From Shigella phage KPS64: a stretch of DNA of 64,000 nucleotides. The notes below the pieces were generated by a model, which was given only the letters and a program-made list of their open reading frames with translations, searched no databases and was not told the origin of the DNA. The translations under genes and the position numbers were made by a program. The DNA is taken from sequence record MK562502. One strand, given 5' to 3'. Every line of letters begins with the position of its first letter. Positions within the stretch are counted from its first letter, which is position 1. Positions 30,607-31,652 of this stretch are shown here, in pieces.

Positions 30607-31209
30607 GTGGAGCTAAATGCTATGAAACTGTTAAATATCAAAATCACTGGCACTCGTCCTTTCCTGAGCCATGCTGATACTCTGTCAGACCCATTAAATC
30701 CTCTGACAAAGTATCACAAGTCTCTGTCTAGTAAACGTAAAAAGACTGACGAAGACTACGCTCTCTTAGCAGAGAGTCAACTGGTAACCTCTTGTTACTA
30801 CGACGAGCAACTAGGTTTTGTTATGAACGGTGAGATGATTGAGGCTTGTATCAAGTCTGGTGCAAAACTCAACAAACTTGGTAAGGTAATTGACCGAGCC
30901 ATTATGCTGACAGATGTAGTCTTCCCAATGACTATTAAGAACTGTCCAGCAAACCCACAAGAACTAGCTAAGAACCAAGACTTTATCTATGCGAAGTCTG
31001 TTAAGATTGGCACAGCACGAGTTATGAGCTACCGTCCAATCTTCCGTGACTGGTCTGTAGAGTTTGGTTTGATGTTTGATGAAGAACAAATTACCAAAGA
31101 AGAACTCTTGATGGTTCTGGAAAATGCTGGTAACCTTTGTGGTGTAGGTGATTGGCGTCCACGCTTTGGTCGTTTTTCTGTAGAAGTTATTTCAGAAGGT
31201 AATGTTTAA
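30607..31209 (+). CDS. hypothetical protein (cassette gene 1)
   Basis: 200-aa ORF; true start may be the ATG at 30621. Confidence 0.5.
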
Positions 31210-31211
31210 TT

Positions 31212-31652
31212 ATGAATACAAAAGCATTAGCAGCAAAGTTTAGTTACGGTGATACTGTATCACACTCTGAGATGGACACCTTCTTAGGTATTGTGAAGCC
31301 GACTTATCAAGGTGACATTGTTAAGTACGAAGATGAAATGAAGGCTTACGCACTTACACGCCTAAATCGACTTGAGAAGTTTATTGAGAAGCTTCTTAAA
31401 GAAGAGAAGATTTATCTGGTTACTTCAATGGGTGTTGGTTATCGTGTGGTGGAACCTAAACATCAAGCAACTATTGCAAAACGTAAAATGTCTAGTAAGA
31501 TTGGTCGTGCTTTAAAACAAGCCACTCAAGCGATTGAGAATGTGAACACTATGGCACTTAGTCATCAAGAACGTTCACGACTGATTGAACAGCAAAACCA
31601 TTTAGCTGCTATGAAAGCTAACATTAACAAGCAACGTAGAAAACCTTTCTAA
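31212..31652 (+). CDS. hypothetical protein with basic C-terminus (cassette gene 2)
   Basis: 146-aa ORF, 2 nt after the upstream stop; Lys/Arg-rich C-terminal third. Confidence 0.5.
   Translation: MNTKALAAKFSYGDTVSHSEMDTFLGIVKPTYQGDIVKYEDEMKAYALTRLNRLEKFIEKLLKEEKIYLVTSMGVGYRVVEPKHQATIAKRKMSSKIGRALKQATQAIENVNTMALSHQERSRLIEQQNHLAAMKANINKQRRKPF

Follow-up and report, generated by a model that had tools for sequence, protein, structure and literature searches.

What is the function of two adjacent genes that are enclosed on both sides by GGT-rich repeats, and do genes and repeats belong together? This question is raised by a locus of Shigella phage KPS64, of which we analysed a stretch of 64,000 nucleotides (sequence record MK562502), in the following called the window. 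Two open reading frames (ORFs), 30607–31209 with 200 amino acids from a GTG and 31212–31652 with 146 amino acids, lie on the plus strand with a gap of 2 nt. A first-pass annotation made from the sequence had correctly described this pair and had regarded it, together with its flanks, as a cassette of unknown function. We are highly confident that the region 30210–31961 of this Ounavirinae phage (Mooglevirus, Sf17-like) is a type II VIPR (Viral Interference Programmable Repeat) locus, orthologous to the locus of phage SUSP1, and that the repeats are genes of guide RNAs (vrRNAs). The two genes and the surrounding GGT-rich repeats are one unit. The VIPR locus is already known from two preprints of April 2026 (bioRxiv 10.64898/2026.04.26.720920 and 10.64898/2026.04.26.720927), and the present work is an independent replication. 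New here, and minor, are the leader elements, an orphan vrRNA module in phage Felix O1 and a near-self match of one KPS64 guide.

Identity of the two proteins

The product of the first gene matches PDB entry 36pp, "SUSP1 Vipr protein", over its full length with E = 1.4e-129, and this is the single solved structure that was matched. KPS64 Vipr is identical to SUSP1 Vipr at 193 of 195 positions and the second protein, Vap1, is identical to the SUSP1 vap1 product at 143 of 146 positions, so that the attribute "unknown function" no longer holds for the pair. The residues of Vipr tested by mutation in the structure paper (H17, K33, R39, K82, R138, D177, W178 and R179) are all conserved; further conserved residues are E71, M72, G87, K88 and C173. 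The assignment of a RAMP fold to KPS64 Vipr rests on the solved SUSP1 structure (PDB 36pp). Gene vipr almost certainly starts at ATG 30622 and not at GTG 30607, because a GGAG motif is located 9 nt upstream and the homologues as well as the PDB chain begin there. The longer ORF of 200 amino acids noted at first does exist, but vipr most probably comprises 30622..31209 on the plus strand and encodes a RAMP-family protein of 195 amino acids, and every homologue has 195 amino acids or fewer. Vipr is near-neutral with an isoelectric point (pI) of 6.7 and belongs to phrog_4652 in PHROGs, where the families of both proteins are labelled only "unknown function". No Pfam, NCBIfam or PADLOC model matches Vipr or Vap1, and domain-family and PHROGs searches found no recombinase or nuclease domain in either of them. 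The structure preprint lists T175 as a contact; SUSP1 (GenBank KT454805) and KPS64 both have V175 (31144–31146), and the T175 of the preprint probably goes back to an error of numbering or typing and does not set KPS64 apart.

The second gene, vap1 (31212..31652, plus strand), follows vipr after 2 nt and encodes a basic accessory protein of 146 amino acids. Its pI is 9.9, and the last 56 residues, with 12 K+R versus 3 D+E, have a pI of 11.7, in agreement with the strongly basic C-terminal third noticed in the first-pass annotation. An AlphaFold (AF2) model calculated from a 66-sequence alignment reached a predicted local distance difference test score (pLDDT) of 96.4 and consists, in this order, of helix, strand and helix, a long helix, a β-hairpin and two long basic helices. 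The weak Foldseek matches of Vap1 are, almost without exception, to DNA-binding domains of the winged-helix type (GntR-like, ScpB, OmpR/SaeR, MarR, ArsR, histone H1), and the N-terminal domain of the modelled protein is probably winged-helix-like with predicted DNA binding. Without proving it, these matches agree with the preprint, according to which vap1 enhances VIPR protection and encodes a "predicted DNA-binding protein" (10.64898/2026.04.26.720920,.720927). No relative of Vap1 was found in the PDB by sequence; an exhaustive HMMER search gave 261 remote full-length homologues, and a word-indexed search gave near-identical proteins only. The distant vipr gene of locus L026 is also followed by a vap1-like gene, of 157 amino acids. 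Nucleic-acid binding, which had been suspected for the basic protein, is involved in the system, but pull-downs and cryo-electron microscopy (cryo-EM) reported in the preprints show that the binder of the GGY repeats, and this as RNA, is the first protein Vipr and not the basic Vap1.

Four guide RNA genes around the coding pair

Searching the window for five consecutive GGTNN units with up to two mismatches gave 31 matches in comparison to 0.04 expected in shuffled sequences. All 31 matches are on the plus strand within 30305–30514 and 31727–31922, and no match was found elsewhere in the 64 kb. Each block is composite and consists of a leader of ~40 nt, 10–15 GGYNN units and a structured tail of ~37 nt. 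The earlier description of mirrored repeat flanks is correct insofar as repeat blocks are present on both sides of the genes; the four modules themselves are direct and on the gene strand, and only the order of the leader types is mirrored (type 1, type 2, genes, type 2, type 1).

Upstream of the genes, the guide region of vrRNA A (30310..30374) contains 13 perfect GGY/NN units with the NN series AA TC TG GT AT CT AT TG TG CT CC TT GA and is followed by a 3′ tail (30375..30412) with an H-type pseudoknot GTAG:CTAC and a hairpin AGTCTCA/TGAGACT. The guide region of vrRNA B (30447..30511) has 11–13 units, two of them degenerate (TGT, AGT), with core GGY units from 30457, and its tail (30512..30548) has the pseudoknot GTGG:CCAC and the hairpin GGTAG/CTACC. 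Downstream of the genes, vrRNA C (31717..31791) has 15 units, 5 of them with a degenerate GGY, and a tail (31792..31828) with the pseudoknot GTAG:CTAC and the hairpin AATCGGA/TTCGATT. In vrRNA D (31875..31924) 4 of 10 units have non-GGY triplets, and this guide is possibly decaying; its tail (31925..31961) has the pseudoknot AAGG:CCTT and the hairpin GGCAG/CTGCC. All eight features are on the plus strand.

The four tails differ in sequence and share a common fold of H-type pseudoknot and hairpin. In 16 tail variants from KPS64 and its relatives 92.6% of the cells are paired, compared with 29–39% in a slid control in which the partners were moved by 1–3 columns, and both sides change in 9 of 11 pairs. 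The 5-nt period of the arrays gives a 10-nt phasing, and the last array unit is semi-constant (GGTAT in 37 of 63 arrays). A scan of the region against Rfam with E up to 1 found nothing. The locus does not have the properties of a CRISPR-Cas system, as the unit has 5 nt with two variable positions, no cas match was obtained in Pfam, NCBIfam or PADLOC, and Rfam gave no match. A TRAP/HutP-like or CsrA-sponge RNA was considered as a reading of the GGTNN period and was ruled out by the match to PDB 36pp.

Proposed mode of action

For the SUSP1 system, the preprints (10.64898/2026.04.26.720920,.720927) describe Vipr as a minimal RAMP protein with an RRM core, a G-loop and a thumb, which polymerises on a vrRNA of 9–16 GGY/NN pentamers with one protomer per unit, the GGY being hidden in each protomer. 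The NN dinucleotides remain exposed and recognise double-stranded DNA in the pattern NNxNNx, with every third base skipped, and the resulting R-loop triplex silences transcription in SUSP1. A 3′ tail with a pseudoknot caps the vrRNA, and the helical filament was seen by cryo-EM with a protein that is 99% identical to KPS64 Vipr. Expression of vrRNAs, their co-purification with Vipr and transcriptional repression of matching DNA were shown in SUSP1. According to the same preprints, perturbation of GGY abolishes silencing, internal degeneracy is frequent in natural vrRNAs, completion of the filament requires a DNA third strand, and both DNA strands are effective as targets.

We propose that the KPS64 locus works in the same way. 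The four repeat blocks would be genes of vrRNAs of ~90–110 nt, expressed as in SUSP1. Vipr would bind one GGYNN unit per protomer and sequester GGY, so forming a helical filament capped by the 3′ pseudoknot, and the exposed NN would read double-stranded DNA as NNxNNx, leading to an R-loop triplex that blocks transcription. By computed matches, the guides would be directed at a parasitic satellite of ~11 kb that is integrated in E. coli chromosomes and whose repression is expected from SUSP1: vrRNAs C and D at the 5′ end of two allele classes of its tape-measure gene, vrRNA B at a site upstream of a gene with a helix-turn-helix (HTH) domain, and vrRNA A at a gene of 92 amino acids. Vap1, basic and probably a winged-helix DNA-binding protein, would enhance the silencing.

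Guide matches in an E. coli satellite

According to the preprint, guides of the SUSP1 clade have a common target, a satellite with a baseplate-hub protein that shares 72% identity with that of the phage (10.64898/2026.04.26.720920,.720927). To find this satellite, the hub homologue of KPS64 (45297–46103, minus strand) was compared by blastn with complete E. coli genomes, and a hub-related gene was detected in 473 of 5426. Eight satellite loci were scanned with the KPS64 NN strings under skips of 0, 1, 2 and 3 bases. Each of the eight is an island of ~11 kb with serine recombinases, a methyltransferase, an HTH gene and tape-measure and baseplate genes, and the satellite in locus L007 carries both proteins named in the preprint, WP_096972664 and WP_096972663.

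Outliers were obtained under skip 1 only; skips of 0, 2 and 3 and guides of reversed polarity remained at background. The best match is that of vrRNA C, with 27 of 30 positions, to codons 10–24 of the satellite tape-measure gene (L005, L006 and L034; 9774–9817). Its first 11 units match contiguously (22/22), and the null maximum is 23. The target is in frame: NN coincide with codon positions 1 and 2 and the wobble position is skipped, in line with the preprint, and the tape-measure allele of this type is present in 138 of the 5426 E. coli genomes. Since vrRNA C and the tape-measure mRNA are of the same sense, the template DNA strand is the only strand with which this guide can pair, and this favours DNA over RNA targeting. 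For vrRNA B, 22 of 24 positions match (23 of 26 with one more 5′ unit), including 9 consecutive perfect units, at a non-coding site that precedes the HTH-domain gene of the satellite by ~100 nt (L005 at 5314–5357, L006 and L032). vrRNA A matches 21 of 26 positions (81%), antisense in the satellite gene of 92 amino acids (L034 at 6997–7034), and its sibling guide in locus L020 matches the same gene in the L007 satellite at 23 of 26. None of 500 shuffles of the unit order reached the scores of A, B or C. The match of vrRNA D, 17 of 20 with 8 contiguous units (16/16), is to codons 15–24 of other satellite tape-measure alleles (L004, L007, L032, L033). Among the guides of the relatives, 51 of 63 reached at least 80% under skip 1, in comparison to 8–11 in the controls (other skips, shuffled, reversed). 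A seed effect, with mismatches clustering at the pseudoknot-proximal end, was considered and is not claimed: without the semi-constant last unit, only the next-to-last unit stands out.

The tape-measure and baseplate-hub genes of KPS64 (45297–48340, minus strand) have homologues in the ~11-kb satellite, and the hub genes of phage and satellite share 72–77% nucleotide identity over about 550 nt. Its integration sites are yecE and positions near tonB or near dinB. In three of the eight E. coli satellites a vrRNA is encoded by the satellite itself, in each case on the minus strand (L007 3948–3997, L033 4055–4119 and L034 4618–4677). These satellite vrRNAs have their own promoter TTGACG-N17-TATAAT, an unrelated 5′ leader and a canonical terminator, together with the same pseudoknot tail and a fifth covarying stem (GTCG/CGAC). 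A vipr gene is present in none of the three. Against KPS64, the satellite guides gave background only, with 14–17 matches; one of them matches other satellites at 20 of 24 positions and another matches a site beside the host gene torZ at 22 of 26.

Promoter, leaders and terminator

The upstream edge of the locus is formed by a predicted sigma-70-type promoter TTGACA-N16-TATACT (30210..30237, plus strand) with 11 of 12 consensus matches. It is kept in SUSP1, Sf17 and Felix O1 and is the presumed start of a transcript comprising vrRNA A and B, vipr and vap1. Five conserved leaders of ~40 nt and of two types stand one before each array and one before vipr, each with about three direct repeats of 11–12 nt (TTAAGAGNCTT or TTTAAAAGGGTC). 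Leader type 1 before vrRNA A, CATCACTTAAGAGTCTTTTAAGAGGGTTTTTAAGTGATG (30268..30306, plus strand), contains an inverted repeat of 10 nt as well as about three direct repeats of 11 nt and is a candidate processing site or operator. Leader type 2 before vrRNA B, CCTTTTTAAAAGGTCTTTAAAAGGGTCTTTTAATGAGG (30411..30448, plus strand), has a T-run directly after the preceding tail hairpin, and in all cases it is leader 2 that supplies the T-run after the preceding hairpin. The fifth, leader-like element, TTTCTAAAGAGTCTTCTGTTGAGGGTTCTTTATAAAC (30549..30585, plus strand), adjoins the vipr ribosome-binding site on its upstream side and is nearly invariant in 22 loci. By sequence comparison, a further leader of type 2 precedes vrRNA C (31680..31716, plus strand) and one of type 1 precedes vrRNA D (31827..31865, plus strand). 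The terminator that had been placed after the genes was found again as an intrinsic-terminator-like hairpin AGCCTCTTCGGAGGCT (31664–31679) with a T-run, together 31664..31686 on the plus strand, the T-run being the beginning of the next leader.

In the text of the preprints that was searched, leader function and vrRNA biogenesis are not discussed. As a sigma-70 promoter, leader type 2 would read TTAAAA-N17-TTTAAT, in which the important A at position 2 of the -10 element is missing, and it was not called by the promoter scan. Both leader types contain three helically phased direct repeats of 11–12 nt, roughly TTTAARAGGGTC. It is conceivable, at a rather low probability, that the leaders are DNA operators or promoters bound by Vap1 or, as a related idea, that vrRNA D tunes the tape-measure gene of the phage itself as well as that of the satellite. 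If Vap1 bound the leaders, the vrRNAs would be transcribed under separate control, each as its own unit, and Vap1 would enhance protection via vrRNA supply; the earlier proposal of a basic protein binding to the flanking repeats would then be right in part.

Distribution and variation among relatives

The region is 96–97% identical to Shigella phages Sf17, Sf18 and Sf19 (Mooglevirus, Ounavirinae) and about 90% identical to many Felix O1-like phages; in the annotation of wV8, the repeats appear only as "DR_4" and both genes are hypothetical. The SUSP1 locus is located between a ligase gene and a downstream gene that correspond to those flanking the KPS64 locus. Vipr with at least 90% identity is encoded in 117 phage records, compared with 259 for the neighbouring ligase region, and the VIPR locus is thus an accessory module. 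The 22 loci in which Vipr is 97–100% identical have 1–5 arrays each and 63 distinct guides, while GGY, leaders and tails are constant. In Sf17, the nearest relative of KPS64, with flanks 97% identical, vrRNA B is identical to that of KPS64, vrRNA A has one extra unit and vrRNAs C and D are entirely different. vrRNA C of KPS64 (31717–31791) is a sibling of SUSP1 vrRNA3 (L003), with two inserted units (NN = TT and AA) and three NN changes at the 3′ side, and the inserted TT and AA units fit Phe-Asn codons in the tape-measure allele of the L005-type satellite. This comparison suggests that guides may evolve by insertion and deletion of whole units that track codon indels of the target.

Comparing synteny in relatives, as the first-pass annotation had recommended, showed that Sf16 (L037 1702–1942; flanks 97% identical) is without genes and repeats together. 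Relative to Sf16, KPS64 30207–31982 is an indel of ~1.77 kb, which is bounded by two TGTTGACA promoter -35 regions (~30207 and ~31975), and a similar promoter stands directly before the next gene in Sf16. Felix O1 (NC_005282; L036 1702–1983, the reverse complement of 57632–57913) is without vipr and vap1 and keeps one orphan module between the ligase gene and ORF87. This module has the same promoter, leader 1, a degenerate array of 9 units and a D-type pseudoknot tail, and from its sequence it looks like the product of a deletion between repeated leaders. The loci L026–L031, in which Vipr is 37–40% identical, also carry GGYNN arrays. Even with such distant Vipr proteins the repeats are retained, and no homology to ordinary structural or metabolic proteins was found, so that neither of the two observations named in the first-pass annotation as fatal to its reading was made. 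The genes and repeats, seen earlier as a cassette-like unit, do form one discrete and variably present module, but the repeats in it are guide RNA genes and not boundaries; genes and repeats travel together because they are parts of one machine, not because the repeats mark the ends of a mobile element.

The space between ligase gene and VIPR promoter contains a strongly hydrophobic ORF of 49 amino acids (30055–30204). Both Sf17 and Sf16, the latter without VIPR, have conserved this ORF, and it is absent from Felix O1; it therefore lies outside the VIPR module.

Alternative explanations

A mobile two-gene cassette of the integron, transposon or homing-element kind, with the flanking repeats as its boundaries for recombination or insertion, would explain that the module is variably present, being absent in Sf16 and having lost its genes in Felix O1, and that the indel against Sf16 is bounded by two TGTTGACA promoter sequences. 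However, the repeats are direct and not inverted, they bear a covarying RNA pseudoknot, and their sequence differs among otherwise identical loci where boundaries would be conserved. No integrase or transposase was found at the locus, recombinase and nuclease domains are absent from both proteins, one of these proteins is 99% identical to a solved RNA-guided effector, and the NN dinucleotides match satellite genes under a specific code. The mobility-boundary reading, to which we give next to no probability, is effectively refuted already. Just as little can be said for the pentamer arrays being iteron-like sites in double-stranded DNA, phased at 10 bp, to which the basic second protein would bind at a replication origin or partition site. 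The 5-nt period does result in 10-nt phasing, the gene 2 product is basic and winged-helix-like, and the locus is situated in a replication-gene region with DNA polymerase and ligase genes upstream. Iterons are conserved, yet in a comparison of near-identical phages two of five array positions are hypervariable; the arrays occur on the transcribed strand exclusively, with a covarying RNA structure after them, Sf16 and Felix O1 replicate without the locus, and the preprints report purified and solved ribonucleoproteins of SUSP1 Vipr and vrRNA. Silencing at the level of satellite or phage RNA instead of DNA, by antisense or translational control, is very unlikely as well. Cryo-EM in the preprints shows that Vipr-vrRNA can pair with single-stranded RNA, and vrRNA A, which is complementary to the sense strand of the gene that it targets, could in principle bind the mRNA, but vrRNA C, being of mRNA sense, is confined to the template DNA strand, the target of vrRNA B is intergenic, and according to the preprints a DNA third strand is needed for completion of the filament and both strands are effective.

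That the KPS64 locus is a VIPR locus does not imply that all of its guides are active. The locus could be partly decayed, with guide D and perhaps C and B no longer loading Vipr, so that it would be weaker than that of SUSP1 or partly vestigial. Non-GGY units make up 4 of 10 in D, 5 of 15 in C and 2–3 of 13 in B, perturbed GGY abolishes silencing according to the preprint, and Felix O1 is an example of decay to an orphan array. On the other hand, both proteins are intact and hardly differ from the active Vipr and Vap1 of SUSP1, all 13 units of vrRNA A are perfect, natural vrRNAs are often internally degenerate according to the preprint, and the degenerate vrRNA C still gives the best natural match (27/30). 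We regard partial decay as unlikely, though as an explanation that deserves to be taken seriously.

Several observations weigh against the assignment as a working VIPR system directed at the satellite. The mechanism of the KPS64 locus is carried over from SUSP1, and the source papers are preprints. The targets were found in E. coli, and the nearest relatives of KPS64 were isolated on Shigella and Citrobacter. The best Foldseek E-value for Vap1 is 0.5 and not significant. vrRNA A matches its target at only 81%, and an exact-pattern search for a perfect target of vrRNA A (10 units, 20 specified bases) found none in IMG/VR and GTDB genomes. The score of 17 for vrRNA D was reached by 16 of 500 shuffles and is, taken alone, indistinguishable from chance. 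vrRNA D also matches the tape-measure gene of KPS64 itself (46103–48340), at codons 15–24, with 16 of 20 positions (48270–48298, minus strand). In a scan for self-matches, which covered 64 kb of the ~88–90-kb genome, the best values for A, B and C were 69–75% and vrRNA D also reached 17 of 20 at a chance site; the threshold given in the preprint is an NN match of 80%. The near-self match may mean either that vrRNA D is inactive, 4 of its 10 units being non-GGY, or that one or two mismatches suffice for self-discrimination.

Comparison with known systems

The KPS64 locus shares with the type II VIPR locus of SUSP1 the promoter, the two leader types, four tail variants with pseudoknot, GGY/NN arrays of 10–15 units and the satellite as target. 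It differs in the arrangement of the arrays, with two upstream and two downstream in KPS64 in contrast to 1 + 3 in SUSP1, and in the guide sequences, among which only vrRNA C and SUSP1 vrRNA3 are siblings; SUSP1 is a Suspvirus, KPS64 a Mooglevirus. In the VIPR of a Pseudomonas fulva prophage and in types I and III–VII, a Vipr RAMP protein is likewise encoded beside GGY/NN arrays. As far as described in the preprints, these types differ in their tails and in the architecture of the arrays, some of which are staggered or separated by ribozymes; nuclease or helicase accessory genes occur in types III–V, and the targets are prophage regulators and not a satellite.

With Class 1 CRISPR-Cas systems (Cas7 filaments in Cascade/Csm, CRISPRi-like silencing), VIPR has in common, according to the preprints, a RAMP fold of RRM core, G-loop and thumb that polymerises on a guide RNA, a thumb that periodically flips bases, a guide composed of a variable part and a constant handle, and an R-loop on DNA. 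Unlike CRISPR-Cas, VIPR is phage-encoded and has no CRISPR array, cas1/cas2, spacers, protospacer adjacent motif or nuclease, and its guide is discontinuous, with two read and three hidden nucleotides per 5 nt of RNA and two read and one skipped per 3 nt of DNA. In TRAP/HutP-type rings, too, a protein oligomer reads a short triplet in RNA (G/UAG there, GGY here) with 2-nt spacers. The fold is different, the oligomer is a ring in TRAP/HutP and a helical filament in VIPR, and the spacers, which in TRAP carry no information and serve cis attenuation, are the guide in VIPR.

The Vibrio phage ICP1 is a lytic phage with an RNA-guided system whose guides match PLE, a chromosomal satellite that parasitises ICP1. 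Its system is a canonical type I-F CRISPR-Cas with nuclease and spacer acquisition. Guide repertoires vary between near-identical phages in ICP1 as in VIPR. In contrast to the ICP1 system, VIPR consists of two genes, acts by repression only, and has no known acquisition machinery.

In conclusion, VIPR is a second, CRISPR-independent way to program a protein by RNA to find double-stranded DNA, by means of a discontinuous code, and the CRISPR RAMP proteins have been proposed to descend from it. Raw sequence alone suffices to recognise the system, by GGYNN arrays together with a gene of ~195 amino acids. The published decoding rule holds for the guides that were analysed independently here and allows the targets of a Mooglevirus phage to be predicted, in a form open to testing, in a satellite that is present in ~9% of complete E. 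coli genomes.

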